From the NCBI GenBank assembly GCA_963843575.1, contig CAWJKZ010000015.1, positions 1 to 64,000 on the forward strand: a stretch of 64,000 nt of DNA, given 5' to 3'. This stretch comes from an uncultured Acidobacteriota bacterium (lineage in GTDB: Bacteria; Acidobacteriota; UBA6911). The notes under the pieces are model-generated. The model was given only the letters and a program-made list of their open reading frames with translations. It did no database searches and was not told the DNA's origin. The translations under genes and the position numbers were made by a program. Below, one piece after another: positions 13,006-35,984 of this stretch; within the stretch, counting starts at the first letter, position 1; each line of letters begins with the position of its first letter.

Positions 13006-13007
13006 CC

Positions 13008-14213: not shown

Positions 14214-14214
14214 T

Positions 14215-18072: not shown

Positions 18073-18102
18073 GGACGCCTTCCGGGAGACGGATCCTGCA
18101 GC

Positions 18103-19548
18103 CTAGACGGAGTCGCCGGCGAGAACGCCCTGGAACCTGGTCAGAGGCGGCCCGACGTGCAGGCCGTGCGGTCCGAACTGAAGTTCGCGGATCGATCGTT
18201 CGTGGTTGCCGGTGCGCTTCTTCACGACCGAAAACGCCTGCTTCACCACGCCGGCATCCTCGAAGTATCGAAACAGGAGGACCGTATCCGCTATGTAGCT
18301 TATATTCACGGGCGAATCGGCGGCGCCGAAAAAGCCATGCTGCGCGAGCGTGAGGATCGTGGCCACTCCCTTCTCGGAAAGAAATGCGAGCAGCTCGTGC
18401 AGGTGCGCGCTCAGGAACCGCTCCTCAGGCAAGGAGTTCAGGTAGCCGTTGATGCTGTCGAGCACGATAACACGAGCTCCCTCGTCGACCTTTTTTTGAA
18501 TCCGGTGCGACAGCTCGCCGGCAGTGAATTCAGCTGGATCGACGGGCAGAAGGTGTACCTTGCCTGCCTTCACGTGCTCGGCCAGCGGGATCCCCAGGCT
18601 GCTGGTACGAATGAGCAGGTTCGTCGGACTCTCGTCAAAACAGAAGATCGCGGCGCGCTCGCCGCGACTGGCGGCGGTAGCAACGAACTGAGCCGCGACC
18701 GTGGACTTTCCCGTGCCGGCAGGCCCCATGAATACAGTGCTTGTCCCTCCATCGAGACCGCCGCCCAGCAATGCGTCGATTTCGCGCACGCCGCTCGGCA
18801 CCGCAGCGCTCGAATGGGTGCTGCGATGGGACGCAGCCACGAGGCGAGGGTAGACCTCGATCCCGTGGTCCCCTATGGTGAAGTCGTGGTACCCGCCGAT
18901 GCTCTTCGACGCGCGCAGCTTGTGAACCCGGAGCCGCCGACGCTCTCCGCCGTATGCGGGCGAGAGATTCTCCAGGTGGACTACGCCACTCACGAGCGTC
19001 TCGGCAACGCTTGCCGCGCTGGCTTCCTGCTCCACGTCGATGAGCCACCCGGTGCAGTTGCGGCCGGCGATCTGGTCACTCAACGTGAGCAGCTCGCGCC
19101 GATATCGGGAAGGGTCTTCCGCAAGCAGCCGGATCTCGGAGAGGGAGTCGAGAACCAGCCTTGTCGGCTGCACCCTCTCGAGCTGCTCGAGGAACTCCCG
19201 GGAGATCTCTCCCAGCTCAACTTCCGAAGGGCTGAACACGGTGTAGCCCGTGCGCTCGTTGCCGGAATCGGCGCCGCCACGGCGCCGCATCTCGTGGACT
19301 TCTATCCCGTCGAGCGTCTGGCCGTAAGCCTCCGCGATGTGATTCAACTGCCCGCTCGTCTCCGCCAGACAGAGATACAGGCACTTCTCGCCGCGCCGGG
19401 CGCCTTCCAGCAGGAACTGCAAGCCGATGGTTGTCTTGCCCGTCCCGGGCTGTCCCTTCAGGAGGTAGATCGCTCCCGGGGGCAGCCCGCCCCCCAAAAT
19501 CGGGTCCAGGCCGGGCACACCGGTTGGGACTCGCGTCTCGTCTTCCAT
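18103..19548 (-). CDS. KaiC-like tandem RecA-fold ATPase
   Basis: Two Walker A motifs (GQPGTGKT, GPAGTGKS); ISYIADT at the KaiC phospho-site position. Confidence 0.92.
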   Translation of the reverse strand: MEDETRVPTGVPGLDPILGGGLPPGAIYLLKGQPGTGKTTIGLQFLLEGARRGEKCLYLCLAETSGQLNHIAEAYGQTLDGIEVHEMRRRGGADSGNERTGYTVFSPSEVELGEISREFLEQLERVQPTRLVLDSLSEIRLLAEDPSRYRRELLTLSDQIAGRNCTGWLIDVEQEASAASVAETLVSGVVHLENLSPAYGGERRRLRVHKLRASKSIGGYHDFTIGDHGIEVYPRLVAASHRSTHSSAAVPSGVREIDALLGGGLDGGTSTVFMGPAGTGKSTVAAQFVATAASRGERAAIFCFDESPTNLLIRTSSLGIPLAEHVKAGKVHLLPVDPAEFTAGELSHRIQKKVDEGARVIVLDSINGYLNSLPEERFLSAHLHELLAFLSEKGVATILTLAQHGFFGAADSPVNISYIADTVLLFRYFEDAGVVKQAFSVVKKRTGNHERSIRELQFGPHGLHVGPPLTRFQGVLAGDSV

Positions 19549-19802
19549 GCGTGGCTCCTTCTGGATATCCCGGTGCTTATCATAAGAGCAGGCTGACCGC
19601 AGTTCGCCGAACCATTCCCGGTGCGATCCTGGGGATTAAGCCTCATGAGGATCGCGCCCGCCTGTTGGTCAACAGCTCCCACCCGAGCCGTCTGGGATGT
19701 GTGTGTGCGCTTCTAATGGTACCACAGGGTCAAAAGGAGCCGCTGGTAAGGGAGAAAGGGGGCGGAGCCGGGTCAGTTGTCCAGATACGGCGATGTAGGA
19801 AA

Positions 19803-20033
19803 CTACTCTGGTTCTTTCTCGCAGATGATGCTGTCCGGATGAACGTTCACCAGTTTCTCGGATCCCTGCAGATTCACCTTGAGCCTGATCCGATGCTTGC
19901 AGACCCGGATGACCTCCGCGGGCACTCTCTGCACCCCGTAACCAAGCAGAAGAGAACGCTTTTTGGAGTAGAGCCAGGTTACGCGGTCTCCCGGTCTTAG
20001 CCGAGAGAAATGGATGTCAATCGATGCCGGCAT
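19803..20033 (-). CDS. Small phage hypothetical protein
   Basis: Overlaps the upstream gene in the replication module; LRPGDRV SH3/KOW-like start. Confidence 0.5.
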   Translation of the reverse strand: MPASIDIHFSRLRPGDRVTWLYSKKRSLLLGYGVQRVPAEVIRVCKHRIRLKVNLQGSEKLVNVHPDSIICEKEPE

Positions 20034-20319
20034 CGCCTCGCGCCTCCCATTCCGAACGCATCCTGTCGAGGTGTTCCGAATTTGCCGCCAGTTGCGCTTC
20101 ATGCGTGATTTCCGACGCGATCTCGTAAAGCTCGCCGGGCATCGGGAACTTCCGGGTGAGCCGCATGACGGCGCGGTCGGCAAGGTCCTCCCACTGCCCG
20201 GGAGTCAGCTTCCATCGGACAAGAATCCGCAGATATCTTGCGATTGCGGCCTTCTGCGGCACGTAGTCGTAACAGGCGGCCAGATCCATCAGCCATTTCG
20301 CGAGCTGCTTTTCGTTCAC
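20017..20319 (-). CDS. Phage protein, possible helicase loader/inhibitor-like
   Basis: GTGA-coupled to rep; KFPMPGEL motif. Confidence 0.5.
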   Translation of the reverse strand: MNEKQLAKWLMDLAACYDYVPQKAAIARYLRILVRWKLTPGQWEDLADRAVMRLTRKFPMPGELYEIASEITHEAQLAANSEHLDRMRSEWEARGDAGID

Positions 20320-21152
20320 GATTCCTCCTTCCCGGGTTCGCCGATGAACTCGTCCCACACGGAACCGTCAGGCAGATCGGGCTGAACGTCGTCCTCCCAT
20401 TGCCGGTTGTTGAGCCAGGTCGCAGGGTGAGGGATGAACTGACCGTTTTCTTTGCGCCAGGCGCGGCTCTGTTTCTGCCGTTCAATCGCTTCGAGCATGC
20501 GGTCGAGCAGAGCCCGATCCGGCTTGAGCTTCAGGAAAGCCGCCAGCCCCTTGGGTTTTTTGACCTTCAGCGGGTAGTGTTCCCAGAAAATCAGAAACAG
20601 GCTGTCTGCATCTAGCCCCCCGTCGGGGGGTAGGGGGGTATGTTCTGAAGAAGAAGATGAAAAAGAAGCAGAAGAAGAAGGGTTTGGTTTTTGTTTGGCC
20701 CCATCTTTGGAGTCACCTTTCACGCCACCTTTGAGATGACCTTTAAAGGTCGACGGCAAGTCGCGTGTTTCGTTGCTCTTGCCGAAATGTGTCCTGTAAG
20801 TCGGGTTTCCGCCACCCTTCTTTCCCGCATCGCTGCATGCCGCCCTTTTCCGTTCGTCCCGGATCATTCGTCTCGAGTAGATCATGCCGTGTTCAGTCCT
20901 GGAGAAAACGCCGGAGTCTTCGAGCTCCCGCAACAGCCGGGAAACCTGTTCGGCGGAACCGCCGGTCATTCGAGCGAGCTGTTCGTCGGATACGGGTTTG
21001 CCGGTTGCGTGTTGGAGGTAGCCCCTGCGGCCGCTCTCGAAGAGCAGACAGAGCATGTCTATCCAGAGGCCTCGCGCTTCAAGCGAGACGGAACGAAGTG
21101 CTGGATCTTTCATCCAGTCCCCGGGATAGAACTGAAAAGAGGGCAGCTTCAT
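20316..21152 (-). CDS. Phage replication initiator protein
   Basis: FQFYPGDW and ARGLWIDMLC N-terminus; FWEHYPLK and FIPHPATWLNNRQWED C-terminus. Confidence 0.85.
   Translation of the reverse strand: MKLPSFQFYPGDWMKDPALRSVSLEARGLWIDMLCLLFESGRRGYLQHATGKPVSDEQLARMTGGSAEQVSRLLRELEDSGVFSRTEHGMIYSRRMIRDERKRAACSDAGKKGGGNPTYRTHFGKSNETRDLPSTFKGHLKGGVKGDSKDGAKQKPNPSSSASFSSSSSEHTPLPPDGGLDADSLFLIFWEHYPLKVKKPKGLAAFLKLKPDRALLDRMLEAIERQKQSRAWRKENGQFIPHPATWLNNRQWEDDVQPDLPDGSVWDEFIGEPGKEES
20702..20749. repeat. Four 12-bp-period iteron-like repeats, putative phage origin
   Basis: CATCTTT, CACCTTT, CACCTTT and GACCTTT at 20702, 20714, 20726 and 20738, next to a purine/AT-rich tract within rep. Confidence 0.55.
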
Positions 21153-21171
21153 TATGTTCCTCAGAATGTCG

Positions 21172-22145
21172 TCAGTCGGATTTCTTGTACTGGTTCTCGA
21201 ATTGTGTGATGCATTTTCGGAACGTCAGCCTGAAGGTGCCCGTCATCCCGTTCCGTTGTTTCGCGATCGAAATCTCCGCCGTGCTGTCCCCGGCGCCGAT
21301 GTCGTCGTCCATGTTTTCGCGCGAGATGAAAAGGACGAGGTCGGCGTCCTGCTCGATCGCCTCGCTCTCCCTGAGGTCGGACAGCTGGGGCTTTCTGCCG
21401 CCGGAACGTTTCTCGACCTCCCGATTCAACTGGGAGACGGCGATCACGGGTATGTCCAATTCCTTGGCGAGGTTCTTGAACCCGCGGCTGATCTCCGTCA
21501 CCTCCTGCGTCCGGTTCTCGTAGCGGCGGGATCCGGATACAAGCTGAAGGTAGTCGATGACCAGAAGATCGATGCCGTGCTCGAGAGCGAGCCGCTGCGC
21601 CCGGGCCCGCACCTGAAGCATCGTGAGGTTCGCGGAGTCGTCGATGTAGATGGGAGCGGCGGAAAGGGAAGCGCTGGCCTGGCCGATTTTCATGCAGTCG
21701 TCCCGGCCGATGTATCCGCTCTGGATTTTGCTCGCATCCACTTCGGACAGGGACGAGATCATCCGCTTCATGATCTCGGGCGTTGACATTTCCAGGCTGA
21801 AGATGCCGACTGGCCGCCGGCCATTGATCGCCGCGTGACAGGCGATGTTGAGGCAGAAAGACGTTTTCCCGAGACCCGGCCTGGCGGCAACCACGACAAG
21901 GTTCTGATCGTGGAGGCCACCGGTCATCCGATTCAGGTCGGCGAAACCGGTATCTATCCCGGACACCGCTCCGCGGTTCCGGGCGGTTTCCTCTATTTCC
22001 CTATAAGCCGAGTGGGCGAGTTCGCTCGTGGGTTCGAAACCGCCACGGATTTCGCGGGACGCGATCCTGAAGATCTGCGACTCCGCCTGTTCGAGGATCC
22101 GGGCCGGCCGATCCTCTCCCGCGTAGCATGCGTGGAAAATTGTTC
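21172..22145 (-). pseudogene. dnaB: Replicative helicase DnaB, N-terminally truncated
   Basis: AARPGLGKT, IDYLQL, SQLNR and SDLRES.AIEQDAD motifs. The frame runs to about 22145 without a start codon or N-domain. Confidence 0.88.
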
Positions 22146-22223
22146 CTCGGATGCATGGAAAATGCGCGGAATTAATTTTCCGAATGCGGAAAGAAGATCT
22201 TGGTTCTGAAAAAAGGAGATGAA

Positions 22224-25200
22224 TCAGCGTTCGGAGATCTTTTTGAGAACTCGCCCCAGGGCCTCCAGATCGACGGGTTTCACGAGATGATCGTCGAATC
22301 CGGCTTCCCGCGACTTCTCTATATCTTCCTGCTGTCCGTATCCAGAAACTGCTACAAGTGCAGTATGCTTCAACTGCTGAGAAGAGCGAAACCGTCTTGC
22401 TACCTCAAACCCGTCCATTCCCGGCATTCCGATGTCCATCAACGCCATTTCGGGCAATTGAGCGAGAGCCAGGTCAATCGCTGCCGGACCGGAGTTGGCG
22501 GTCATTACTTCATGCCCCTGGATTTGCAGCAAAGCAGCGAGCAGTTCGGCGGAATCCGCGTTATCGTCGACGACCAGTATACGGAGGGGTCTCCGCTCCT
22601 TTATTGTCCCTGGTTTCTTTTCAGTCGCATGCTCTTTTTCATCGGATAGGAGCGGCAGCCGAATCCGGAATTCGCTCCCGCGGCCGGGACCTTCACTGCG
22701 TGCCTCGATGCTGCCGCTGTGCAGTTCTATGATGGACCGCACGAGGGTCAATCCAATACCCAGGCCCCCCTCTGCGCGGTCAGGGGATCGGCTCCCCTGG
22801 ACAAATAGTTCAAAAATATGCGGAAGCAATTCCGGCTCGATCCCCTTGCCGTTGTCTCGCACGGAAATCAACGCCTGGCTGCCATCTCGGTCCACAGTCA
22901 GATAGACTTCACCCCCAGGTGAAGTGTACTTCGCGGCGTTGTCCACCAGATTGCTGATTGCCTGCGCGAGCCGAACCGGATCACCCTGCAGGCGCATCGG
23001 TTCTCGGGGATGGGAAACGTACAGTCTGTGTTTCCGTGAGTTCACGGCCGGATTGCTCGCTTCTACAGCGCTCTCCAGCACCGAGAGGAGAGAGACATCC
23101 GTTTTGTTCAGCGTTACCTTTCCCTGCGTTACACGCGCGACGTCCAGCAGATCGTCCAACAGCCGCGCCATATGAGCCGTCTGGCGTGTTGCTGCGTCGC
23201 GCGCACGCCGGACCATCGGGTCCGAAGAGCCAATTTGTTGGAGCAACTGGTTCGCGCAAGCGATAGCGGCGAGCGGATTGCGTAATTCATGTGCCAGCAT
23301 TGCGAGAAACTCGTCCTTGCGGCGGTCGGCCACCTTTAATGCTTTCTGCGCTTGCGTCAATTCGGTGATATCCATGACCGCAACGACCGCCCCGTTCACT
23401 CTTCCATTTGCGTCGTGCAAAGGCATCGCATTGTTCAGAATCGTTCCTCGTGATCCATCGAAACGCTGGATATCGATGACCTCACCCACCGACATCTCAC
23501 CCTTCGTAAGCGCTCGAGATGATGCCCAATCTTCGCCTGTCAACGGCACGCCCGTGTCTGCCCACCATCCTTTGAAGCGACCGGTATCGGGAATGTCCGA
23601 TGTGAACTCAGGAGCGGGTTTAGAGCCGCCCCAGATCCGGTCCATGGTTTCGTTCGCAAGCACGGTATGTCCGGCTGTATCCATAACGGCTACGCCTACT
23701 GGAAGAGTCGAGATGATGGCCCGCAGTCGTTCTTCACTCGCGCGTAGCGCTTCCTCGATGTGCTTGCGGTCCGTGATATCCAACGTGGCGCCTACGTATC
23801 GGACCAGCTTGCCATTCTCATCGAAATGAGGATTCGCCCGGTCAAAAACGACGCGCACAGTCCCATCGGGGCGCACGATCCGGTGTTCGAGCTCATAGAT
23901 TCCGTTGCTTTGCATGGCCGAGGTGAAGGTCTCATGCAGCAGGGCAGCATCGTCCGGGTGAATAAATCTCTCGAGCATCACTTCGTAAGGTGGAGATGGG
24001 GCGTCTGGGGGGAGGCCGTAAATGCGGCACTCCTCGTCGGACCACAGTGTCGTCCGGCTCTCCATAATGTATTCAAAACTTCCAACATGCGCGATCCGCT
24101 GGCCCTCGGACAGCATGAACCGCATCTTCTCAAGTGCCTCTTCGGCTCGTTTGCGCTCCGTGATGTCGCGGACGACCGCCACTGAGCCGATGATTGCACC
24201 ATCGGGCCCACGGACCGGTGCTGCATTCACCTGTCGGTGCCGCAGTTCGCCAGTCGCTGGAGTCCGGACGATCTCTTCCTCGTTCGTGACAATTTCTCCC
24301 CGCAGAGCCCGCAATGGCGGGGCTTCCTCTACTGGTCGGGGGGTGCCGTCCCCCCTGTAGACCTCGAAAGCAGCCGCAATTTTCTCCACGTCTTCCGTGT
24401 CGCCCAGGCCGGAGTCGAACTGTCTCGAGACGGCAGGATTTACGAGAGTGAGCCTCTTCTCTGCGTCGGCAAACCAAATCTCGTCGGTGATGCTATTGAC
24501 TAGCGCTGCGAGGCGGTCGCGCTCCTGCTGCACGACGGTCGCCGTACGTCGTTGCTCCGCCTCAATCCGCGCCCGCTCTACAGCGTGCCACGTCCGGTCC
24601 ACGGTTTGTTCCGCGAGCCTTATTTCCTCCCCTGTCCAGTGCCGCGGCCGCCTCTGAAGAACTCCCAGGACACTCACCAGTTTCCCCTGTTTTACCAATG
24701 GGACGCCGATGAAGGCGGCGACATTAACGGCCCGGTACGCCTCGCGTTGACTCGGCTCCCTCTCGTCGGTGAATACGTTCGGGGAGCATACCGTTCGACC
24801 CGCTCTGTAATCCTCGTAATCGGTGTGGCTGAATTCTCTAAAAGGGAATCGGCCGGTAAGTGAAGATACTTCTGGCCGATGGTAGTCGCGCTCGATCACC
24901 AGGGTTTCAATGCCGTCCTCCAAGAGAATCTCACCAAAGAAAACGCGGTCTGTCTGCATGCGCTCACCCAGCAGACGGGCTGCGACGGCCTTGACCTGAA
25001 TCGGATCGTCGATTTGTGTTAACGCATCGTTCAATTGCAGCATGAAGGATCGTTCGGCTTCGCTTTGCTGCAGTTTCTGCTCGGCCTGCTTCCGTTCGGT
25101 GACATCGCGGACCGTTCCGCGAATGATGGCCTCATCCCGGACTATATCAACCGAGGCATTGGATTGGAGCCACACCACCGAACCGTTCGCATGGATGTAC

Positions 25201-26357
25201 CGATACTCGTCCTCATGGCCTACAACCTCTCCTTCCGAGCGGGCGCGTTCCAGCAAGCGGGCGGCATTCTCGGCAACTCGGTTCCGATCATCGGGATGTA
25301 CGGCTTGCAGCCAACGGTCCCACGTTATCGGCGAGCCTGTCTCGTACCCAAACAATTCGTAGTGCTCAGGGCTCCAGTAGGCCGTCTCCTTTGACGCATT
25401 CCACTCAAAAATTCCGATGCGGCCGGCCTGCGCAACGCGGCGGAATCTCGACTCGCTGGAGCGCAGATCCTGTTCTGATTGTTGGCGTGCGGTGATGTCG
25501 AGGACCTGGGAGAAGACGGAGCTCAACCGACCGCTGGCATCAAAAATCGCCGAGTTATACCACTCGCAGAGCACCACTGTGCCGTTCTTGCGATAGTTGC
25601 GGTTGACGTGCAGGTTGCGACGGCTTTTACCGTTGAGCATTTCCGTCGATGTCTGGCGCACCTCATCTATGTCGTCTTCGTGAACCCAGCGCAGGTCAGC
25701 TATCGCGCGGCCGATAACCTCGGCGGTAGACCAACCGAAAAGCCGTTCCGCCTCGCGTGACCAGCGGATCACGCGAAAATCCGGATCAAACTCGATTACT
25801 GCCAGCGGTGAATTGTCAATGTGCGCATCCAGCCGCTGTTTTTCAGTGGCGAGGGCCTCCTCGGCCTCTTTGCGTTTGGTGATGTCCTGCTGGATGCCTA
25901 TTATGCGCAGCGCATGACGGTTGTCGCATTCTCCTGAAACGATGGCCCGGCCTCTTGCACTCGTCCAACGAACCGAACCATCAGGCCAGAGGATGCGGTA
26001 TTCCGATTCATAATTGCCGTTCCCGTCCGGAGACATTGCTTCGGCGAATGTCCGAGTGACCCTTTCCCTGTCTTCAGGATGGATCCGCGCTATGGCCCCT
26101 GGGTAGTCGAGGTTTTCGTCCTCTGAGATCCCCCATATCTGTTTCGTTCGCGAATCCAAGACTACGTTGCCCGTCTGGACATCGTATTCGAACGTGCCGA
26201 ACTGCGCAGCTTCGAGCGTCAGTCGCAAACGTTCTTCCGTTTCGCGGAAGGCTCCTTGGAGTTCCAGCGCTTCCTCTTGTGTGGTGCTTCTCCGCAAGTC
26301 AGAGTCAGCCTGATGACTCTCCCGCTGAATCTTTGTCTGCTTACGCGGGCCACCCAT
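22224..26357 (-). CDS. Hybrid sensor histidine kinase (multi-PAS, GAF, HisKA, HATPase, REC)
   Basis: Repeated PAC DIT motifs, LAHELRNPL, GLGIGL and receiver VVDDN..MDIGMP..LVKP. Confidence 0.94.
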   Translation of the reverse strand: MGGPRKQTKIQRESHQADSDLRRSTTQEEALELQGAFRETEERLRLTLEAAQFGTFEYDVQTGNVVLDSRTKQIWGISEDENLDYPGAIARIHPEDRERVTRTFAEAMSPDGNGNYESEYRILWPDGSVRWTSARGRAIVSGECDNRHALRIIGIQQDITKRKEAEEALATEKQRLDAHIDNSPLAVIEFDPDFRVIRWSREAERLFGWSTAEVIGRAIADLRWVHEDDIDEVRQTSTEMLNGKSRRNLHVNRNYRKNGTVVLCEWYNSAIFDASGRLSSVFSQVLDITARQQSEQDLRSSESRFRRVAQAGRIGIFEWNASKETAYWSPEHYELFGYETGSPITWDRWLQAVHPDDRNRVAENAARLLERARSEGEVVGHEDEYRYIHANGSVVWLQSNASVDIVRDEAIIRGTVRDVTERKQAEQKLQQSEAERSFMLQLNDALTQIDDPIQVKAVAARLLGERMQTDRVFFGEILLEDGIETLVIERDYHRPEVSSLTGRFPFREFSHTDYEDYRAGRTVCSPNVFTDEREPSQREAYRAVNVAAFIGVPLVKQGKLVSVLGVLQRRPRHWTGEEIRLAEQTVDRTWHAVERARIEAEQRRTATVVQQERDRLAALVNSITDEIWFADAEKRLTLVNPAVSRQFDSGLGDTEDVEKIAAAFEVYRGDGTPRPVEEAPPLRALRGEIVTNEEEIVRTPATGELRHRQVNAAPVRGPDGAIIGSVAVVRDITERKRAEEALEKMRFMLSEGQRIAHVGSFEYIMESRTTLWSDEECRIYGLPPDAPSPPYEVMLERFIHPDDAALLHETFTSAMQSNGIYELEHRIVRPDGTVRVVFDRANPHFDENGKLVRYVGATLDITDRKHIEEALRASEERLRAIISTLPVGVAVMDTAGHTVLANETMDRIWGGSKPAPEFTSDIPDTGRFKGWWADTGVPLTGEDWASSRALTKGEMSVGEVIDIQRFDGSRGTILNNAMPLHDANGRVNGAVVAVMDITELTQAQKALKVADRRKDEFLAMLAHELRNPLAAIACANQLLQQIGSSDPMVRRARDAATRQTAHMARLLDDLLDVARVTQGKVTLNKTDVSLLSVLESAVEASNPAVNSRKHRLYVSHPREPMRLQGDPVRLAQAISNLVDNAAKYTSPGGEVYLTVDRDGSQALISVRDNGKGIEPELLPHIFELFVQGSRSPDRAEGGLGIGLTLVRSIIELHSGSIEARSEGPGRGSEFRIRLPLLSDEKEHATEKKPGTIKERRPLRILVVDDNADSAELLAALLQIQGHEVMTANSGPAAIDLALAQLPEMALMDIGMPGMDGFEVARRFRSSQQLKHTALVAVSGYGQQEDIEKSREAGFDDHLVKPVDLEALGRVLKKISER

Positions 26358-26627
26358 GATGCTTTCTCCTGACCAGGACGTTCGGCCTTACTTCAGCCCG
26401 GCGTTTTCTTCGTACCGTAATAGAGTTCATGATCCCCAGGGGGTAGGGCGACCCAATATACTCCGATGCCATTAATTGAACCAATTGATTTGGTTTGGGC
26501 AAGGCCGCTGAGCTAGCAACCCAGGTTGCCGTATAGTTGCCTTTTTGGGCCAAAAAGTACGGAATTGCCTTTCTGTAAGTCGTTGATTCTGCTGCAAGTT
26601 GCTGAGGGGAAAGGGGCGGGAAGGCGC

Positions 26628-26691
26628 TTCGTAATCAGTAGGTCGTCGGTTCAAGTCCGACCGCTGGCTCCATGAAAACAAAAGACTTACA
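26628..26691 (+). repeat. att copy 2: tRNA-Thr 3' half plus 19 bp
   Basis: Identical to 8341-8404. IHF consensus on the bottom strand at 26576-26588; TTTGCCGA repeats at 26732 and 26743. Confidence 0.95.
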
Positions 26692-26799
26692 TCTTTTCCT
26701 CTTTCCCTTCTTTCACCTAAAACCACCCACATTTGCCGAACATTTGCCGATGTGTCGTATCAGGAACTGGGGCCGAAATCCGGCGCATCCCAGAGGCCC

Positions 26800-26973
26800 A
26801 GTACAAACAAGTCCTCATTTTTCATGACTGGCCGTATTTGCTTCTTTGCTTCGCTGCACCGCCGGGCGCACGCTTGCGGCATCTGAAAAGCGGAATGCGG
26901 CGCCGTAACCCTCGTGCAGCGCTTAGGCGGCGAATGTCCACCTGCACAGTCTAATTCTCGACGGCGTCTACTA
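26800..26973 (+). pseudogene. IS91/ISCR-family rolling-circle transposase fragment
   Basis: Reads CGAVTLVQRLGG, a deletion, then NVHLHSLILDGVY (HUH motif). Confidence 0.72.
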
Positions 26974-27107
26974 TCTGGAAGATCGGCAGCAGATCATGAA
27001 TTCCGAGTAAGATCGATCCGGGACTGGGCAAAATTTGACAAATGCCTTGCTTTCCATCTCTGAACTTTTGACCTTAAATTGTGGTTCGACATTGCGAGGG
27101 GTAGTCC

Positions 27108-28187
27108 ATGGATAGGAAGAAGACGAGAATCGTATTTTGTGATCAGGATGCGTTTTATCCATTTCGTTCGCTCGTTGAGGGCCATATACGCAGTCCCGAA
27201 GAGCTCGTGGAGGCAGAGAGGTTCATCAGAGGCATTCTGCTTCATGACGAAGTTGTCATGGAATATCAACCGATCCCCGCTCCGTTGGAGGAACCCGAAT
27301 GGACGGAGGAGCAGATTGCCTTCGGAGCGCGCAACGTTATCACTGCTTTCGGTCCTACTCTTGATGGATATGAAGAACTCGTGTCAATGAGGAAGGGGCC
27401 ACATGAACGTTTAAAAGTTCAGTTGGCTCCGAGCTTGCTGAAGCTGGCAGAGGACTTTTCCGGCGCGGGACCAGGTGACCCCTATCACGAGGCCCATGTT
27501 TATTACATCGGCAGACTTGTAACGACAGTGAGAGATGGTGGGAGCGCGATCTGCGCAGGCGAAGTCGGAACAGCAGTGATCAAAACCTCTTCATCCTATC
27601 CCGAGCAGCTTTTTTCGGAACTCGATCGATCCTGGCAGGAGTATGCACAGGCGGCTCATGGGGGCGATATCGGTTTGAAACTCCCGCCAATGCTGGCCGT
27701 AATCTTGTCACGGACACAAAAACGGGAATATCTCCCAACCATTCTCAGAGACCTAAGGGACGAATGGGCCGCAGCGAGGGCAAAGGTCTGGGGCTTGATT
27801 GATGAGCTTTCGACTGCCGCCACTTTAGAGCAAGCAAACGACATAAAGAAGCAGCTCCAGGAGGCATCAAAGCTATTGTTGCCTGGATCTCTGACTGGCG
27901 TCGATCCGGTGCGGATTTTATGGGAGCTTGTGAGTGAATCCGGCGCGGGTGCAGTAGAGGCACAATTGTCAGGTGGGAATCCCTTAATCGGTGCCGCAGC
28001 TGGGATAGTGAAAGGCTTTGCCGAGGCAACGAAGGAATCGTCCGGTTTCGCCCGTGTCCTATTCGGCCGTGGCGCTTTCGACCTTGCAAAAAAGGTCAGT
28101 CATTTGCTTTCCCAGGTCGAGCCGATTCCTGGCCTGCTCAATCGTTTACTTTCAGAAGACGAAAAGGTTGCACTCGGGTTGAAATGA
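27108..28187 (+). CDS. Hypothetical protein (359 aa)
   Basis: Long, lower-GC ORF with GAGGGG RBS; family not recognised. Confidence 0.8.
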   Translation: MDRKKTRIVFCDQDAFYPFRSLVEGHIRSPEELVEAERFIRGILLHDEVVMEYQPIPAPLEEPEWTEEQIAFGARNVITAFGPTLDGYEELVSMRKGPHERLKVQLAPSLLKLAEDFSGAGPGDPYHEAHVYYIGRLVTTVRDGGSAICAGEVGTAVIKTSSSYPEQLFSELDRSWQEYAQAAHGGDIGLKLPPMLAVILSRTQKREYLPTILRDLRDEWAAARAKVWGLIDELSTAATLEQANDIKKQLQEASKLLLPGSLTGVDPVRILWELVSESGAGAVEAQLSGGNPLIGAAAGIVKGFAEATKESSGFARVLFGRGAFDLAKKVSHLLSQVEPIPGLLNRLLSEDEKVALGLK

Positions 28188-28229
28188 CAGGTGTGACCCG
28201 TGCTCAAGGGGAGAGTGGCTTTGGCTCGC

Positions 28230-28490
28230 CTATGCGAGGACGAAACGCCGGGAGTTCGGGGATGCTACCGCATCCCCCGCCGCTCCCATTCGGGAAGGGT
28301 CGAGAGTTTTGAAGGTAAAAGTCCGTGCCGGGACATCTACGAATATGTCCTTCATGTCCACGTAGACGCTGTCCAATTCGTACCCATAGTTCGCGGGGTT
28401 GGTCTCGTCCAGATGTTCATTCCAAAGGTCATGCGTCTCGTCAGAAGAGAGTTTGTCGGCGATACGCTCTCGAATCTCACTGATCTCCAT
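28230..28490 (-). pseudogene. Acidic hypothetical protein, probably truncated
   Basis: GGAGG RBS; protein-like for about 62 aa, then composition changes. Confidence 0.4.
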
Positions 28491-29361
28491 TACAACCTCC
28501 GTATTTGGGGCGCGGCGACTGCCCCTCCTTCTAGAAAAGATTCAGAGAAGAATAAACAAAAAATGTTGTTAGAGAGGACTGCCTCAAAAGGGCGAAAACG
28601 CAATAGAGGCCGCGCGATTCTTCGCTTCCGGCTGTTGATGACGAAAGTGATGTTCCGACCGGGGAAAGTGTGGGCGAAATTGCGGATCGCAAGCAGATCA
28701 ACTTTCCAAGAGTCAACAAGGCGTTCGCTGAGAGTGCTTTCTTTCATTGCCCTGGCCGCCAGGTCCGTGGGGGTATGAGTCCCCGCTTCGGTGCCTTCAC
28801 TGAATCCTTGCCGCTTTCCGTACTCGGATACGCACTCGCTATGTGATGCAGGTTGGCGGATATATCGGCCGTAAGAATTGCCATCGCGCCAGCAATGGCC
28901 GCTGCGGTATTGAACAGTAGGTCACCGAGAAACGACTGAATGTTCATGTGCTTGGATTATCAGACAAATACGCATTATGAAAGCCCGCCCCGCGGAATCG
29001 GGATGGGCACAGTAATGGCGGCTGTCTGGCGACAGGCGAGGGGCTCTGCCCCTGACCCCGGGATTTTCTGAGGCATGGCTCTGGTGTCCGATAGATTAGG
29101 TGAGGCATCTGATGAATGTCATATGTCAGAGGCCTGATGCACCATCGGCGCACCGTCGGCCTGACTATCCCTTGCCAGGTTGCGTCCCCGCAGAGCCTGA
29201 CTCGGTTTCGCCAGGCGGGTTCAGTCTAGCACACAGGAAATTGCAGGTTGAAGAATCGGCGCGAGCTGTCGGGGAGATCCATTATGAAAAGAAGACGCTC
29301 CAACAGCGGTAAGATTGGTATCGGTGAAAAAAACCATTCCAAACCGTCGAAGGAGCGTCTG

Positions 29362-30417
29362 ATGAAAAAGTATATCGGCATGGATGTCCACAAAGCAACA
29401 ACGGTGATAGCGGTCATCAGTGAATCGGGCAGGTGGATTATGGACACCGTTGTTGAAACGTCCCCACAGGAAATCCTCGATTTCATCAACGGGCAGCGCG
29501 GGACGCTGCATGTCACTCTGGAGGAGTGTGCACAGGCGGCCTGGCTTTACGACCTGCTCCGGCCGCACGTCGCGGACGTGTTGGTTTGCGATCCACGAAA
29601 GATCGCCAGGGCAAGCAACAACAAGGCAGACAAGTCCGACGCCATGCGGTTGGCGGAGTTGCTTCGCACCAATGCCCTGAGGCGGGTCTATCATGGCGAG
29701 CAGAGTACGCAGGGGTTGAAGGAACTGACGCAAGGTTACACCTGCCTGATCTCGGACCGGACCCGCGTCAAAAATCGCCTGAAGGCTCTGTTCCGAGCCC
29801 GGGGAATCGCCTGTGAAGGCGCCGGAGTCTACAGCCTGGAGGAACGGGAACAGTGGCTGGCGAAACTGGACACGGCAGCGGTCCGTGCCCGGGCGGAGCG
29901 ACTCTGCACTGAACTGGACTGCCTCGAGTGTCTGTCTATAGAGGCAGAGCAGGAAATGACGGCCGAGGCACGGAAACATCCGGCGGTAAGGATTCTTCGC
30001 ACCATACCCGGAATCGGATTTGTCCGGGCAGCCGTCATTATCGGCGTGGCTGGCACTCCCCACCGTTTTCGAACCAAGAGGCAGTTCTGGAGCTACTGCG
30101 GCCTGGCGGTACGCACCGAGGCGAGTTCGGAATACAGGATCGTCGATGGGAAAGTCCTTCGATCCGGCAGGCGGCCACTTGTTCGAGGGTTGAATCAGAA
30201 CTACAGCCGTCCGCTGAAGTCGGTATTCAAGAGTGCGGCCAGGACTGTCGCCTCGGGACCATGGCGGTCGTATTTCGAGGCCATGATCGGAAACGGAACA
30301 CCCGAATCCCTGGCATACCTGACTCTGGCCAGGAAAATCGCTTCCATTACCCTGGCACTCTGGAAAAGAGGAGAACGCTATAGCGAGAAGAAACTGAAAA
30401 TGTCGCACGCGGCATGA
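29362..30417 (+). CDS. IS110-family DEDD recombinase/transposase
   Basis: YIGMDVHK, LEE, KADKSDA, TIPGIG and YCGL..EASS motifs; AAGGAG RBS. Confidence 0.95.
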   Translation: MKKYIGMDVHKATTVIAVISESGRWIMDTVVETSPQEILDFINGQRGTLHVTLEECAQAAWLYDLLRPHVADVLVCDPRKIARASNNKADKSDAMRLAELLRTNALRRVYHGEQSTQGLKELTQGYTCLISDRTRVKNRLKALFRARGIACEGAGVYSLEEREQWLAKLDTAAVRARAERLCTELDCLECLSIEAEQEMTAEARKHPAVRILRTIPGIGFVRAAVIIGVAGTPHRFRTKRQFWSYCGLAVRTEASSEYRIVDGKVLRSGRRPLVRGLNQNYSRPLKSVFKSAARTVASGPWRSYFEAMIGNGTPESLAYLTLARKIASITLALWKRGERYSEKKLKMSHAA

Positions 30418-30424
30418 GGCGTCT

Positions 30425-30790
30425 CGAAGGCTGACTGCACAAGTCGGCAAGGGTATTCCGGTTGAAACCCGAACGAGACGCGAGGTCGAGGGTGAGTCTC
30501 AAGAACGCCGTTAGGCCCGGAGCTGGAGTCTCCCAGATACCATAGGCCCCCTCGCATGACCAAATAAAGCAATAGGCTTCCAAGTCTCAGATAGGACCAT
30601 GGTCGGCAACATGGCCGCTGCGCTTTGAAAGTCTCGAACGGACCTGAATCCCGCTGCCCCTTACGCAGTCAGCTGCAATGACGGCAAGTGCAGGCGTCAA
30701 TCCATGAAGTGGTAGTGCAGGTTCGGCGGGGCAGCATTAACGAGCGTTGGCTGGATGTCGTGCACCGACAAAAAGCGCCCCCGTGCCTGG
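30425..30790 (+). ncRNA. Putative bridge/seek RNA
   Basis: Structured non-coding region (GCTGACTGC 30430 pairs with GCAGTCAGC 30665) containing a 9-nt match to the target flank. Ends approximate. Confidence 0.65.
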
Positions 30791-31092
30791 GGCGGAGAGA
30801 TTTGTCCTTGACATCCGCTTTCATAGGACGGCGTTCAGGGAAGCTATCTTGTGAAATGTCCTGAATCCAACCTGCCTTGGAAGTAATACATCAGACTTCG
30901 CCTTGCTTCTGTGGCTGCCAAAATACTACGCGTTTTCTAGCGGATGGGAAGTCTCCATCCCGGTCGAGGAGAAGCCGTGGTTGCCGATCGCTTGCCGATT
31001 TGTTTGCTGATTTGCGTGGAAAAGGGCGGAAAAAGGCGGCAAAACGTTATTAGAACCGCGTATCTTGTTGATTCCATTGGTTCTGGACCGAG

Positions 31093-31137
31093 CTGGCAGT
31101 CAGGAGGTCGCGAGTTCGATCCTCGCCAGCTCCACCA
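31093..31137 (+). repeat. tRNA-Ala(GGC) 3' half as an att core
   Basis: CTGGCAGTCAGGAGGTCGCGAGTTCGATCCTCGCCAGCTCCACCA starts at the anticodon loop, with no 5' half upstream. Confidence 0.85.
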
Positions 31138-31713
31138 ATAGAATCAACGGATTACGGTCGTCTCCGTTCCTTCCTCCCCTCCGTTTTCCTCCAACATTTG
31201 CCGATTGTTTGCCGATTTCCTATTGAGAATCTAGAAGACCATGGGAACTGCGAGTTTCCCAGGAGACGTCATCCCTGAGGTGTGATGGGAGATTTCACTA
31301 CTCCGAGCAGCCCGTTGCGCCTTAAAGCACCCGTGCGAGGTGTGGCTAATCCTTCTTGGGTGTGAAGGGCTTCTGAGCTTCCAATTCGGGTGGTAGTTTA
31401 GTTCCTTTGTCATCGCAAGCAAGAGATTCTTCCAGCTCAGCTATCCGCCGGGCTACTTCTGATCGAGGCCGCATGGTCGGCAAACCGCTTATCCGCACTG
31501 CAAATCGGAGGTGTGCCCAAAATCGACTCTCCCGCAGCATCGTTTTGAGTTAAGATGCCACCCAAGTCCAAGAATAAGGACTTGGTTAACATATTGGAGG
31601 CGAGAGGGAGAGCCTGCCGCGTCTGGATCAGAGCGGATGGGAATCAATCACGCAGCTTAAAATTCCTACTCATTCCGAGATTGAACGAACCTAACTATTG
31701 GAGAGGATTTACC

Positions 31714-32616
31714 ATGAAAAGAGAGAGTGTGTTATATGTCCTGATTTCTTTGGTGATGGCCATGCTTCCCCTGAGCGCATTAGCCCAGACAGGTCCAGTG
31801 GATCCGGCAGTACTAAAGGCCGAGAGGACCCAAAGGCCCCGGAGACAGCAAACGCCTCCGGAAGATCCGACCACCTGGAGGAACAAAACCATTATGTGCG
31901 TCATGCCGCACGAGGACGATGAAGCCAGCAGCCTGGGAACGTTGGGATTACTGAAGGCCAATGGCAACAAGATAGTCATGGTGTGGTATACAACCGGTAA
32001 CAAGGGAACAAGGGACTTCACCCTGTCCGGCGAGAAAATCGCGGCGATAAGGAAGGCTGAATCGGAGAATGCCTGCGCAGAGATGGGGATAACGCCGCAA
32101 AACTCTACTTTCATCTGGCTGGGATACGATGACGGAATGCTGGAATATGTTCCTGCCAAGGAGCTGACTGAAAAAGTCTGCAAGCTGGTAAGGCAATACC
32201 GCCCGAATGCATTGTTCACCATGGATCCCGGTGACCAGTCAGTGAAATGGCATAAAACAGACCATCGGGCGTCAGCCTTGATCACCCTCGATGCCGCTCG
32301 GGCGGCCGCCTACTGGCTGTATTTCCCAAGCCAGTATACCCATGAAGGCTTGCAACCCTTTACCGTAACCGACTTTTTCTTCACTTCCAGCAATGAGCCG
32401 AATTACCGGGTGGACGTCACCGGCGTAAGCGACAAAAAGATCCGCGTTGGGGCTTCGTATCCGAGCCAGCACGGTGACGGGAATTTAAAGTACGCGGGCC
32501 CGGCAATAGATCAGGAAAACCTCAATAAGCAGTTGAAAGCCAATGCTGATAGAATCGCCAAGAGCGAAAAGGTCTATGAGATATTCCGGAGGGTTACGGG
32601 CTCAATGTCTTTCTAA
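31714..32616 (+). CDS. PIG-L/LmbE family deacetylase, exported
   Basis: Signal peptide; MPHEDDE, TTGNKG, RKAE and HKTDH motifs. Confidence 0.9.
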   Translation: MKRESVLYVLISLVMAMLPLSALAQTGPVDPAVLKAERTQRPRRQQTPPEDPTTWRNKTIMCVMPHEDDEASSLGTLGLLKANGNKIVMVWYTTGNKGTRDFTLSGEKIAAIRKAESENACAEMGITPQNSTFIWLGYDDGMLEYVPAKELTEKVCKLVRQYRPNALFTMDPGDQSVKWHKTDHRASALITLDAARAAAYWLYFPSQYTHEGLQPFTVTDFFFTSSNEPNYRVDVTGVSDKKIRVGASYPSQHGDGNLKYAGPAIDQENLNKQLKANADRIAKSEKVYEIFRRVTGSMSF

Positions 32617-33209
32617 CGTGCTGCATTAAAGGGCCACGCTAGGATTGCCCGGGAGGTCCGGGCACCCTTGAAAAAAGTCTGATCGACAGGGCAGGTTTGA
32701 TTTTCGTTTACCGGCTCAAACCTGCCCCCGATCCAGCAAATGTCCAGAGAGCGTCAGGCATCGCCGCGCATGAATGTATTGCTAACGAGAAAGCGTCAGT
32801 GGATGGGCGACGCTTCGTCCTTCTCGACCTTGACCAACTCCAACTCGCTCACAATCCTCGCCAGCCGTCGCACCGTGTCGCAACCGCAGGGATGACCATG
32901 CCGGAGTATCCCGTCATGATTCTCCCCAGCGGTGCTGCGTTGGCGGCGGAGCTTCTGGAAGAGGGGTACGGATCTGCGCGACGTCCCCGAGGACCGGCTG
33001 ACCCGCCCGATCCATCAGAAGGCATAGCGGGCAACGGTCAGCGGGAGGTACCTCCGCTATGAAGACCGTGACGCCATTGAGAAACTCCTGTCTGCGCTTG
33101 CCGATTGCTTGCCGATTTGTTTGCTGATTCAGGTGGAAAACGGCGGCAAAATGCGGAAAATCGTGCCGGTAACCGCGTATCTTGTTGATTCTAAAGGTGC
33201 GAAAGGTAG

Positions 33210-33255
33210 TTCGTAATCAGTAGGTCGTCGGTTCAAGTCCGACCGCTGGCTCCAT
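33210..33255 (+). repeat. att copy 3: tRNA-Thr 3' half
   Basis: 46-bp identity to 8341-8386, followed by the similar TGAAAACGAAAGACTTA. Confidence 0.95.
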
Positions 33256-33655
33256 TGAAAACGAAAGACTTATCGCCTTACCCTCCCCTCAAGACCAAGA
33301 GCTTGGCGATGGCGCCGTTGCCAGACCGGTACGTTGAGCCTGAACGTCTCGAAGACGTTGTCGTCCCACTCGACGCGAGCTGTTCCCGGTACCCGCCAGC
33401 TTGCAGTCGTCTATCGGACGGCCGCATGAGTCGCAGATCACCTTCGGGCAGTGCAGTCCGTCCTCCAGCTTCACCTGGATCCCCATCGTCCGGTCAGGAG
33501 GCACGTGTGCGAACCTGTGCGTTTTCTATAGAAAATGCCGCACAGGTCCTCGCAACCTGCGGGCGGACAGGTTGCCGCAGTTTGACGCGGCGTCGACAAG
33601 TCGTGCATCCATTTTATGAAACCCCGGTCACGATGGAGTTCCGGTTCCGGATTTG

Positions 33656-34648
33656 TCAGGTTTGGAGATCCGAATCCTGACTGCCTCGCCGGCTATACTC
33701 GCGAACATTCTGGGCTTTCCACAACAGGCCAGGGTGAGAACGAATAATCGCCTGCAAGTCGGGATCTTGCGTCAACAGCCCCGTTACGATTTCACCTTTG
33801 TCATTTAAGGTCGAAAGAAATTCCATTTCACAGCTGGTCAGCGGCAGGACTGCGGACAGGAGCCGGCGACACTCCATCACGAGATTCTCGCTCCATGGAC
33901 GGACATCGGCGCGTTTCGGGGCCTGCTCGGATTGAAGCATGGGCAGAAGCTGCTGCGCCACAGCATTGCCGTCAGCCCGGAGATCGTCGACCGATACCTT
34001 TCGCCAATCCCGGCGGCTTATCCCCCCATATACAACGAAAGCGAGTCGCAGCCGTGCTTTGTCGAGCTGAACCTCACGCAATAGGCGGCACGTATCGAAC
34101 AGATCTCGGGGAGCGCTCCTGTCGAAGAGGGCTGCGAGCTTGCCGGCAGCCAGTTCATGCACATCCAGCAGCGGCACTCTCATCGCGCGCAAGGAGCCGA
34201 TGGGATGCGAATCCATGAGTACGGGAGGCCAGAGCGGAGTGCGCAACAGGAAGTTGATATCGAGTTCAAGCGAACCCGGGTGCCCCCATGCGCTCACATA
34301 GGTCAGGAGCCATTTCCCGCCGGCATGCTCGCTCGGAGCTCGCCTGACTTGCATTCCGACTCGGCTGCAAACCGCCTGCACCGATTGCTCGACCTTCGGC
34401 CGCTCGCTGAGCATGGTCTCACGATCCTCGGACCCGATGTAATTGAGGTCGATATCAATGGACAAGCGGGGCACCTGAAGCACGAATAAATTGAGTGCCG
34501 TGCCGCCTTTCAGCGCAATCCGCTCCTTGAGGAAAGGATGGCTGCGCAGGGATTCGAGCAGCTCGAAGAGGGCGAGCGTCTTCTCCAGCGATTCGGCATG
34601 AAATCCTGATGCCGCAGCCTCGCCTAGCAGGTCATCTAAAGAGAGCAT
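33656..34648 (-). CDS. abiEii: AbiEii-family nucleotidyltransferase toxin (type IV TA)
   Basis: LKGGTALN, RLSIDIDL, GKLAAL and RDLFD motifs; TGATG overlap with the antitoxin. Confidence 0.92.
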   Translation of the reverse strand: MLSLDDLLGEAAASGFHAESLEKTLALFELLESLRSHPFLKERIALKGGTALNLFVLQVPRLSIDIDLNYIGSEDRETMLSERPKVEQSVQAVCSRVGMQVRRAPSEHAGGKWLLTYVSAWGHPGSLELDINFLLRTPLWPPVLMDSHPIGSLRAMRVPLLDVHELAAGKLAALFDRSAPRDLFDTCRLLREVQLDKARLRLAFVVYGGISRRDWRKVSVDDLRADGNAVAQQLLPMLQSEQAPKRADVRPWSENLVMECRRLLSAVLPLTSCEMEFLSTLNDKGEIVTGLLTQDPDLQAIIRSHPGLLWKAQNVREYSRRGSQDSDLQT

Positions 34649-35448
34649 CAGACGGTCTCCTCCCAACGGCGACTCAGCACATATTCTGGAATGATCAGAT
34701 TCCACGGCCGGACCAGTTTACCGGCTTTGCGGCTGCCATCGAGGTACCGCGGTTGTGTTGGAGCCAGCTCCCGGAGCGCTTCGAGATGCTTGTCCTCCAC
34801 CATTAGACTCTCGCGATGCCGCTCCAGAAAGAAACCGACGCGTGCCGCCGATATCGCGGAACCCAGCGCCCGGACATGTGAGATCACGGCATCGAGATCG
34901 AAGAATTCGACCATTTCAAGCGAACGCCAGAGTTCTTCCCAGCCGCCGCCCTTATCCGGTTCATCGAGAACATCGACAAGGGTCCGTTCCAGGGTGGTCA
35001 CCCGCACCCGGCCGCCCACGTGCCGTACCTCCCTAACTCCTTTGGCCTCGTCCGGAAGGGATTGGAGCGCCGACGAGACTTGGACCGGAACAAACTCGAG
35101 GTCACGAAATGAAAAGGGTCGCGCCCGCATGGCGGTAAGGTAGTGAAATCGTTTCCACACCGAGTAGGCCTTCCCGAAGAACTGAAGAGCGGCGTGGTAG
35201 GCGACCACCGCGTCATCCGTAACCTTCGAAGCCACCAGGTATGGATCCAGACTGGAGCCGATGCCCTCAGCACGACGTGGAACGGCGGCGTACAGACCCC
35301 GCCGCACCCTGAGAAGACGGCCCGATGCGAGGTGCCTGGCAAGCAGATTATTGCTGGTCCGCGGGCTCCTGCCCGAGGCCGTGTGTGCTGCCAGGTACTC
35401 GGCATGTCTGAATACCGGATGAGCCTCAAAGAAATCGACCGATCGCAT
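34648..35448 (-). CDS. abiEi: AbiEi-family antitoxin/transcriptional regulator
   Basis: wHTH LLRVRRGLY, AYHAALQFFG and VTTLERTLVD motifs. Confidence 0.9.
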   Translation of the reverse strand: MRSVDFFEAHPVFRHAEYLAAHTASGRSPRTSNNLLARHLASGRLLRVRRGLYAAVPRRAEGIGSSLDPYLVASKVTDDAVVAYHAALQFFGKAYSVWKRFHYLTAMRARPFSFRDLEFVPVQVSSALQSLPDEAKGVREVRHVGGRVRVTTLERTLVDVLDEPDKGGGWEELWRSLEMVEFFDLDAVISHVRALGSAISAARVGFFLERHRESLMVEDKHLEALRELAPTQPRYLDGSRKAGKLVRPWNLIIPEYVLSRRWEETV

Positions 35449-35460
35449 GACTTGCTCCTA

Positions 35461-35499
35461 TGCGCACTTGTGCTCACAAATAGTAGCAATAAGTGCACA
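35461..35499. promoter_or_regulatory. Imperfect inverted repeat, candidate AbiEi operator
   Basis: TGCGCACTTGTGCT...AGCAATAAGTGCACA immediately upstream of abiEi. Confidence 0.5.
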
Positions 35500-35639
35500 A
35501 CTCGGCAAGTAAAACTAGCTATAATGAGCAATTGTACTCATTTATGGTGGGTACTTATGCGCCGATAGGACACTACCGATCCCGTGGATCACAATCCTTC
35601 TGCGGCTCGCACGGTACTGCCGAGACAACTCCTGATCGA

Positions 35640-35850
35640 TTTGTGATTTCGGGAACAGTGATGGATCCAACTCATGCATCAGTACCGGGAGCAAACCTGC
35701 TTCTGAGCAAGGGTACGAACGGGCCCGAACAATCGCTGGTGACTGATGAAACTGGTGTTTTCCGTTCTGCGCCGGTCGATCCTGGTCGCAATGAAATCGA
35801 GATCTCCCGAAATTCCTTCAGGACGCTAACCCGACGAGTTACGGTTCGGG
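35640..35850 (+). pseudogene. Carboxypeptidase-regulatory-like domain fragment (TonB receptor N-terminus)
   Basis: ISGTVMDPTHASVPGA..TDETGVF motif; no continuation. Confidence 0.55.
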
Positions 35851-35984
35851 ATCGGGTCGGAAGCCGACTCGAAGGCTCAAAAGCCTCAAAGAACGCGCCT
35901 GTTGTTTCCCACACGCTATTATAGACTTTCGAGAGGCAGACCCGTAACCCCAGAACCAGCGGAGGGCATCCATGCTCCAGCGAA

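Follow-up and report, generated by a model that had tools for sequence, protein, structure and literature searches.

How does a complete attachment site built on one tRNA gene come to lie inside an array of integrated islands that stands behind another? The question is raised by the first 64,000 nucleotides of contig C15 (C15:1-64000, the stretch of DNA analysed here and referred to as the window) in the 6.68-Mb, 27-contig genome of an uncultured Acidobacteriota bacterium. In the window, an array extending from position 8386 to about 35856 reads, in order, tRNA-Thr, island T1, a Thr core, segment H1, an Ala core, segment H2, another Thr core and remnant T3. Taking the evidence together, we consider it probable that tyrosine-integrase islands stacked in tandem behind tRNA-Thr(CGT) have decayed here, that the site at 30981-31231 is an attP-type site of the same arm family with a tRNA-Ala core, that it entered via homologous recombination and that it is now a fossil. 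The assembly, in which 47 tRNA genes were found, is 88% complete, and negative results for the genome hold for this part. The relatives used for comparison (numbered with G) are Acidobacteriota metagenome-assembled genomes; none of the conclusions depends on G046, an unpublished genome.

The Ala site consists of a left (P) arm, a 45-bp core and a right (P′) arm. The left arm begins with three arm repeats (TTGCCGAT at 30981 and again at 30992, TTGCTGAT at 31004), continues with GGCGGAAAA-like repeats at about 31018-31046 and a near-consensus box for integration host factor (IHF) at about 31058-31076, and ends in 24 bp that are specific to the Ala type. The core is the 3′ half of the host tRNA-Ala(GGC) gene, which is located at C10:617055-617130. 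In the right arm, which aligns with C10:625415-625553 over 139 bp at 86% identity, TTTGCCGAT is present at 31197 and 31208, and the IHF consensus WATCAANNNNTTR is matched at 31142-31154 by AATCAACGGATTA. The sole other match to this consensus is on the minus strand at 26576-26588, within the arm that precedes Thr core 2. The expected number is 0.61, against two observed, and two matches are also obtained in 9 of 100 shuffles; the count by itself is weak, and what stands out is the placement. The spaced pair TTGCCGA-N4-TTGCCGA occurs five times in the window (at 8446, 26733, 30981, 31198 and 33098) and not once in 100 shuffles. Genome-wide, TTGCCGA pairs with a spacing of 9-13 bp are limited to these window sites, C10:625520 beside a second Ala fragment, and two places in C13.

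A preliminary description of the locus, made from the letters alone, had placed the Ala core, the arm repeats, the near-IHF box and the IHF consensus at this site, and all of them are present there. It had also stated that the right-arm repeats match those after the Thr copies, and the paired repeat does recur at 8446, 26733 and 31198. The two comparisons it had proposed, of the core with the genome's own tRNA-Ala(GGC) and of the repeat pair with the whole genome, gave a match at all 45 positions and the sites listed above. Its homology between the left arm of the Ala site and that of the third Thr site is real, with a length of 94 bp at 84% identity (30981-31074 against 33098-33191) instead of about 110 bp; the approximately 20 bp nearest the cores differ.

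As in attP sites, the core is identical to a chromosomal target and is flanked on both sides by arm repeats that are conserved in related elements; an adjacent integrase gene encoding an N-terminal arm-binding domain is missing. Judged by its sequence, the interval 30981-31231 is an authentic attP-type junction of left arm, core and right arm on the 3′ half of tRNA-Ala(GGC). In a chromosome, a complete site of this kind either marks where two tandem elements adjoin or is an attP left unused when its element came in by another way. An Rfam match to transfer-messenger RNA at 31067-31137 scored 19.7 bits, below the gathering score of 47 bits, and corresponds to the tRNA-Ala-like half.

The same left arm precedes both kinds of core in related genomes. 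A scan that tolerated at most 2 mismatches to the left-arm pattern found 13 sites in 8 of 51 family genomes, and the reversed pattern, used as a control, found 0. An Ala core follows the arm at four of these sites (window 30981, G017:C65, G069:C1 and G027:C500), and one more (G017:C71) has the Ala-type arm end with a truncated core. Five sites have a Thr core (window 33098, G017:C31, G019:C30 and two in G033:C196), and three of the 13 arms have no core. In an alignment of the ten arms with a core type, leaving out the three core-less ones (20 within-type and 25 between-type pairs), the first 91 bp of the arm have a mean identity of 85.5% within a core type and 83.4% between types, with cross-type pairs of up to 93%. 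For the last 24 bp the values are 80.6% within and 55.0% between types. Since the first 91 bp are nearly as similar between types as within them, this part of the arm does not sort by core; the last 24 bp do. The 3′ remnants of integrase genes at a Thr core (L022) and at an Ala core (L026) are also closely alike, with 87% identity over 166 nt. A tblastx comparison of the regions upstream of the left arms at six loci revealed no conserved genes. The arms and integrase remnants support the existence of one element family that keeps its arm sites and takes either a tRNA-Thr or a tRNA-Ala core, as the preliminary description had proposed from the window.

A second mixed array was observed in another relative (G025:C6, 430855-459704; L026 and L039), containing two Thr cores, a decayed Ala core and integrase stumps. 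Here, 3.1 kb separate a Thr core and its right arm from a mutated Ala core, which has a truncated left arm before it and a right arm with an integrase stump after it. There is no tRNA gene in the 58 kb examined of this contig, and the array is adjoined by a multi-copy gene for a 296-amino-acid recombinase. With this second example, the mixing of cores is recurrent.

The two tRNAs concerned have a feature in common. An anticodon stem of the form CTGA-loop-TCAGNAGGTC is present in two of the 47 tRNAs of the genome, exactly Ala(GGC) and Thr(CGT), and the right half-sites of the two cores are near-identical (TCAGG/TAGGTCG). The shared stem, enclosing a different 7-nt loop, suggests why these two tRNAs may serve as targets. 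In the mechanism that we propose, the integrase would use its N-terminal domain to bind the TTGCCGAT arm repeats, of which the left arm has three and the 3′ end of the integrase gene itself has two, and its core-binding domain to recognise the anticodon stem CTGA/TCAGNAGGTC, common to only these two tRNAs. Strand crossover would take place, we infer, in the 7-nt anticodon loop. The element would then be retargeted from one of these tRNAs to the other by exchange of a cassette of about 130 bp, which takes in roughly the final 24 bp of the left arm, the core of 45 bp and the first part of the right arm. According to the available part of the literature on lambda-type integrases, the N-terminal domain of Int binds arm-type sites, and any 7-bp overlap works if the partners match (PMC7736782).

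A stronger version, in which the integrase of the family is naturally bispecific, with one arm set, one anticodon-stem half-site and two heterospecific overlaps (the Thr and Ala loops), appears improbable. If it were true, chromosomal arm-core-arm sites such as 30981-31231 would be live substrates. An incoming helper could excise H1 and H2 separately, or swap cassettes between Thr- and Ala-bounded segments, and recombination of the chromosomal Ala attP with the tRNA-Ala gene on C10 could rearrange the chromosome; together these would amount to a natural two-site cassette-exchange system.

The preliminary description had called the island integrase-free, and three scans bear this out. PF00589 has ten matches in the genome and none in C15:1-64000; 64 open reading frames (ORFs) chosen from 8542-37081 encode no recombinase domain apart from an IS110 transposase; and tblastn with 11 integrase queries gave no match in the window. 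The term needs one qualification, as the three right arms in the window keep the 3′ tips of integrase genes (to about 8510, 26800 and 31231), which means that the islands became integrase-less by deletion. In relatives with intact genes, the integrase gene directly adjoins the tRNA gene on the opposite strand (tRNA-Ala in G004, tRNA-Thr in G007 and G062), and in all three both right-arm repeats fall within its last codons. The repeats vary by lineage, reading TTGCCGA, TTGCAGA or CTGCGGA. A conserved non-integrase block of about 70 nt was observed directly after the right-arm repeats at three loci of relatives (L030 in G034:C300, L034 in G069:C7 and L023 in G019:C30) and is weakly matched at 31217-31270 of the window, which hints at either an unknown module or a deletion derivative that these loci share.

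Elsewhere in the genome, the sole integrase homologue (C10:629063-630211) aligns to residues 108-380 of the intact 396-amino-acid protein of G069. Upstream, the frame continues as unrelated sequence and the equivalents of residues 1-107 are missing; it is this missing part that, in lambda-type integrases, binds the arm-type sites, as far as the available text of PMC7736782 describes it. A tblastn search of the genome with the intact G069 integrase returned this truncated copy, a 28-amino-acid scrap on C18 and other matches of at most 37% identity; a cognate integrase was not found in the assembly. The closest intact integrases, in G069:C7 and G022:C232, have no adjoining tRNA core.

The block of tRNA-Thr that is repeated starts at 8341, within the anticodon loop, and its 45 bp recur in direct orientation as Thr cores 2 and 3 (Table 1), so that an intact tRNA gene is followed by 3′ fragments in the same orientation. 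Upstream, synteny with G001, a genome of the same genus, reaches the tRNA (window 578-7562 against G001:C10:119336-126226); it is then broken, and restarts at window position 35857, corresponding to G001:C10:159187. The GC fraction is 0.52-0.60 between 26 and 36 kb and 0.64-0.73 in the flanks, as expected of a foreign insert. The islands of such arrays would each be expected to have their own integrase; here there is no integrase gene, just the 3′ stumps, and the array is thus a decayed one. The segments on either side of the Ala core, H1 and H2, each have a right arm at the left end, a left arm at the right end and end cores that do not match.

Table 1. Features of the tRNA-Thr array and of the Ala site within it (window coordinates).
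Feature	Position	Strand	Details
tRNA-Thr(CGT), intact target gene	8310-8385	+	ARAGORN; Rfam tRNA 75.2 bits; repeat family D3
Island T1, 18.2 kb	8386-26627	+	Right-arm (P′) repeats 8446/8457; integrase 3′ tip to ~8510
Thr core 2, second copy of the tRNA-Thr 3′ half	26628-26672	+	100% identical; repeat family D3
Segment H1	26673-31092	+	Thr-type right (P′) arm at start, Ala-type left (P) arm at end
IS110-family insertion sequence in H1	28968-30836	+	Transposase 29248-30417; Pfam DEDD_Tnp_IS110, Transposase_20
Ala-site left (P) arm	30981-31092	+	Arm repeats, GGCGGAAAA-like repeats, near-IHF box
Ala core, tRNA-Ala(GGC) 3′ half, anticodon loop to CCA	31093-31137	+	45/45 identical to C10:617086-617130
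Ala-site right (P′) arm	31138-31231	+	IHF consensus, two arm repeats, ~15 nt integrase 3′ tip
Segment H2	31138-33209	+	Ala-type right arm first, Thr-type left arm last
H2 cargo	31232-33097	+	PIG-L family deacetylase gene 31555-32616 and 121-aa ORF 32697-33062; Pfam
Left (P) arm of third Thr site	33098-33209	+	Same three repeats; last 24 bp Thr-type-specific
Thr core 3, third copy of the tRNA-Thr 3′ half	33210-33254	+	Repeat family D3
Remnant T3	33255-35856	+	Degenerate P′-like start; AbiEii/AbiEi pair

The cargo of T1 includes a small terminase, an HNH protein, a ParB-N protein, a piece of a C5-methylase, a DnaB-C helicase, a KaiC-like ATPase and histidine kinases. The first five of these, within 11855-22000, are phage- or satellite-like pieces; this part of T1 also contains internal repeats of 76-80 bp (13487/14716 and 14613/15547), adjoined by the KaiC-like ATPase and the histidine kinases. 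The island ends in a diverged left arm at about 26526-26627, to which the minus-strand IHF consensus belongs. In H1, the right-arm repeats are at 26733 and 26744, and the ORFs at 27108-28187 and 28200-28778 have no family match. The insertion sequence (IS) in H1, situated 145 bp upstream of the left arm of the Ala site, has a 99.9% identical twin at C9:12841-14709 and three copies of about 85% identity at C9:109945, C9:119976 and C10:617396. Comparison of the flanks of these five copies revealed no common target sequence. An IS110-driven route to a chimeric array was considered and is unsupported, there being five copies without a common flank and a single copy here.

Just past Thr core 3, a complete AbiEii/AbiEi toxin-antitoxin (abortive-infection) pair is encoded on the minus strand (33656-34705 and 34648-35448), with PADLOC E-values of 3e-104 and 7e-93; these are the sole PADLOC matches among six cargo ORFs. 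No closing Thr fragment was found for T3. Outside the array, the window contains a GC-rich palindromic interspersed repeat of the repetitive extragenic palindrome (REP) type at 3976-4158, of which an 82-bp query (4018-4099) has 123 BLAST hits genome-wide. The same repeat has many copies in G001, often in arrays with a 117-bp period. At the tRNA-Thr locus of G001, a 5′ partial copy (C10:126293-126367) lies 12.4 kb upstream of the complete gene (138735-138811), just before which there is an integrase match (138146-138595); this looks like a different type of island, one that displaces the 5′ fragment.

As to the way in which the Ala site reached the Thr array, the simplest route, and the one that we propose, is that a Thr-type element already resident there recombined homologously with an Ala-type relative. 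The homology would have been provided by the shared 91-bp arm module or by the integrase gene, and the event would have occurred either at the locus or by way of a cointegrate circle that then integrated by its Thr site. The Ala site would accordingly be a chimera of related Thr-type and Ala-type elements and most likely a fossil one, the fossil status following from the lack of a working cognate integrase in the genome. One of the two origins offered in the preliminary description, a piece of a tRNA-Ala tandem array recombined into the Thr array, comes close to this, in that Ala-type DNA entered the Thr array. The tRNA-Ala(GGC) locus of this genome (C10:617055-630211; L001) was itself observed to be an array. 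The tRNA gene is followed by an 8.3-kb island, which has an integrase gene cut by a copy of IS110 and then IS3-like and serine-recombinase pieces, and, at 625415, by the second Ala fragment. After that fragment come a TTTGCCGAT right arm, genes for AraC, AurF-like and DUF4395 proteins and the N-terminally truncated integrase, and no TTGCCGAT-type left arm closes this Ala element.

Several observations weigh against a fossil formed by recombination. The route is a proposed one, and no crossover point is visible, since either left arm in the window has its closest relatives among arms with the same kind of core (91% and 92%). The Ala site shows no decay, with its core intact at 45 of 45 positions and all five repeats preserved, which would fit a recent event or continued use and argues against a very old fossil; the Ala copy of G025 and the right arm of T3, by contrast, are decayed. 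A search for an intact element that combines a full integrase with TTGCCGAT arms found none, and the intact relatives bear variant repeats (TTGCAGAT, CTGCGGA). At 88% completeness, a cognate integrase could also sit in the unassembled part of the genome.

A particular form of the recombination route would be a one-off cointegrate, in which homologous recombination, in the integrase genes or in the arms, joined a Thr-type with an Ala-type circle, and the product integrated via its Thr site and later lost both integrases. The locus has exactly the topology expected, running from a Thr core through right arm, cargo and left arm to the Ala core, and from there through a further right arm, cargo and left arm to another Thr core; every right arm is followed by an integrase stump, and between core types the arm modules have identities of 83-93%. 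The same data fit an Ala-type element recombining into a resident Thr element equally well, however, and two later independent integrase deletions are required, so this specific history is rather unlikely. Far more doubtful is a direct exchange, in which the integrase itself joined an Ala-core to a Thr-core site despite their unlike overlaps and made the mixed array by illegitimate site-specific recombination. The right half-sites are nearly the same and two genomes hold mixed arrays, but such an exchange would leave a Thr-type arm end on the Ala core, and the last 24 bp seen here are of the Ala type, as in four other Ala sites. In the established mechanism, moreover, non-matching overlaps block exchange by tyrosine recombinases (PMC7736782, in the part available). 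A chimeric join made by the assembly inside the Thr island might be suspected from the nearby IS110 copy, a 1.87-kb repeat of a kind that can mislead short-read assemblers. Yet both flanks of the IS are anchored to the Thr locus (on the left by the cores at 8341 and 26628, on the right by that at 33210 and by the flank that is syntenic with G001 from 35857), the left arms are just 84% alike and would not be collapsed in assembly, and other assemblies hold similar complete sites and another mixed array. Misassembly is therefore unlikely, with a very slight chance of accounting for the site.

The other origin in the preliminary description was a live dual-address cassette, that is, an integrase-less 6.6-kb unit (26673-33209) mobilised in trans and integrating at tRNA-Thr or tRNA-Ala by two attP sites. 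When circularised, the unit would indeed hold two complete left arm-core-right arm sites; both cores agree with the host tRNAs at all 45 positions, the arm repeats are preserved and the stem to which the integrase would bind is common to both tRNAs. This proposal finds no support in the remaining data and we regard it as improbable. The window contains no integrase, the sole genomic homologue is without its N-terminal part and IS110 is inserted in the unit. Neither the unit with its H1 and H2 cargo nor either of its two halves was found in 60 relatives, where the matches were gene-level homologues of 66-76% identity. Both right arms hold stumps of deleted integrase genes, as expected of decay and not of a dedicated satellite. 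Of the sequencing runs compared with 30840-33300, none covers the locus; 20 contain part of it, the best of them 15% of the sampled words. The metagenome contigs that match are short and fall on the tRNA cores, the PIG-L gene and portions of the arms, and one of them, 114 nt long, spans 31049-31149. Two apparent joints stem from single contigs of low depth with short sides.

If the proposed mechanism is true, this family offers a case of natural integrase retargeting by cassette swap, in which the arm module and the integrase stay constant and about 130 bp move the element from tRNA-Thr(CGT) to tRNA-Ala(GGC), as would be possible because the anticodon stem to which the enzyme would bind is common to both tRNAs. 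It would then provide a testable rule for the change of target by tRNA-targeting integrases, and a heterospecific site pair for one enzyme, as cassette-exchange tools need. For programs that search for islands there is a caution, since a fragment of one tRNA may lie in the array of another and integrase filters miss integrase-less arrays. In this genome, the Ala site is most likely a fossil.

The heterobivalent Int proteins of lambda and HK022, which use arm-type and core-type sites, have a common arm-site recognition and differ in core specificity. The layout of the Ala site, with arm repeats, IHF-like boxes and a core, resembles that of these phages as given in the available part of PMC7736782. 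It differs in that two tRNAs provide the targets, in their anticodon stem-loops, that the numbers of arm sites are reversed (three left, two right) and that the right-arm sites are inside the 3′ end of the integrase ORF. Tandem arrays, displaced tRNA-gene fragments and anticodon-centred sites are standard signatures of islands, and the Islander collection, in the portion of its description available, lists 125 tandems of at least two islands and 2083 anticodon-centred sites (PMC4383910). Like those arrays, the present one has an intact tRNA-Thr gene followed by direct 45-bp copies of its 3′ part from the anticodon loop, with foreign cargo of low GC content. Unlike them, it has no island with an integrase, so that the integrase filter of Islander would reject its islands, and one internal junction bears the fragment of another tRNA.

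Cis-mobilizable elements (CIMEs) of streptococci are described, in the available text, as decayed elements that have lost their integration genes and kept attL and attR, and that accrete in tandem by repeated site-specific integration with integrative and conjugative elements (ICEs) as well as integrative and mobilizable elements (IMEs) (PMC5704250). The present array likewise is a stack of decayed elements with att sites and no integration genes, as far as that text allows comparison, and cores and arms without an integrase are present at both ends of H1, of H2 and of the 6.6-kb unit. It differs in that neither a functional partner element nor a cognate integrase in the same cell was found in the 88%-complete assembly, and in its mixture of Thr and Ala cores, which is not part of the CIME description in that text (PMC5704250). 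For the tycheposons of Prochlorococcus, the accessible part of the account tells of repeated tRNA integration that pushes older elements inward, leaving islands with fragmented integrases and scattered partial tRNAs (bioRxiv 10.1101/2020.12.28.424599). Integrase fragments and partial tRNAs of degenerated elements are likewise found here, to the extent covered by that part. The host phylum, Acidobacteriota, is different, and the complete heterologous attP-type site has no counterpart in the portion of the tycheposon description available (bioRxiv 10.1101/2020.12.28.424599). A narrow literature search found no description of a heterologous tRNA core within the array of another tRNA, although one may exist in print. 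We regard the array as a variant on tandem or CIME-like island arrays that are already known; what is unusual is the complete site on another tRNA inside it, together with the cross-genome evidence of one arm module serving two tRNA targets.

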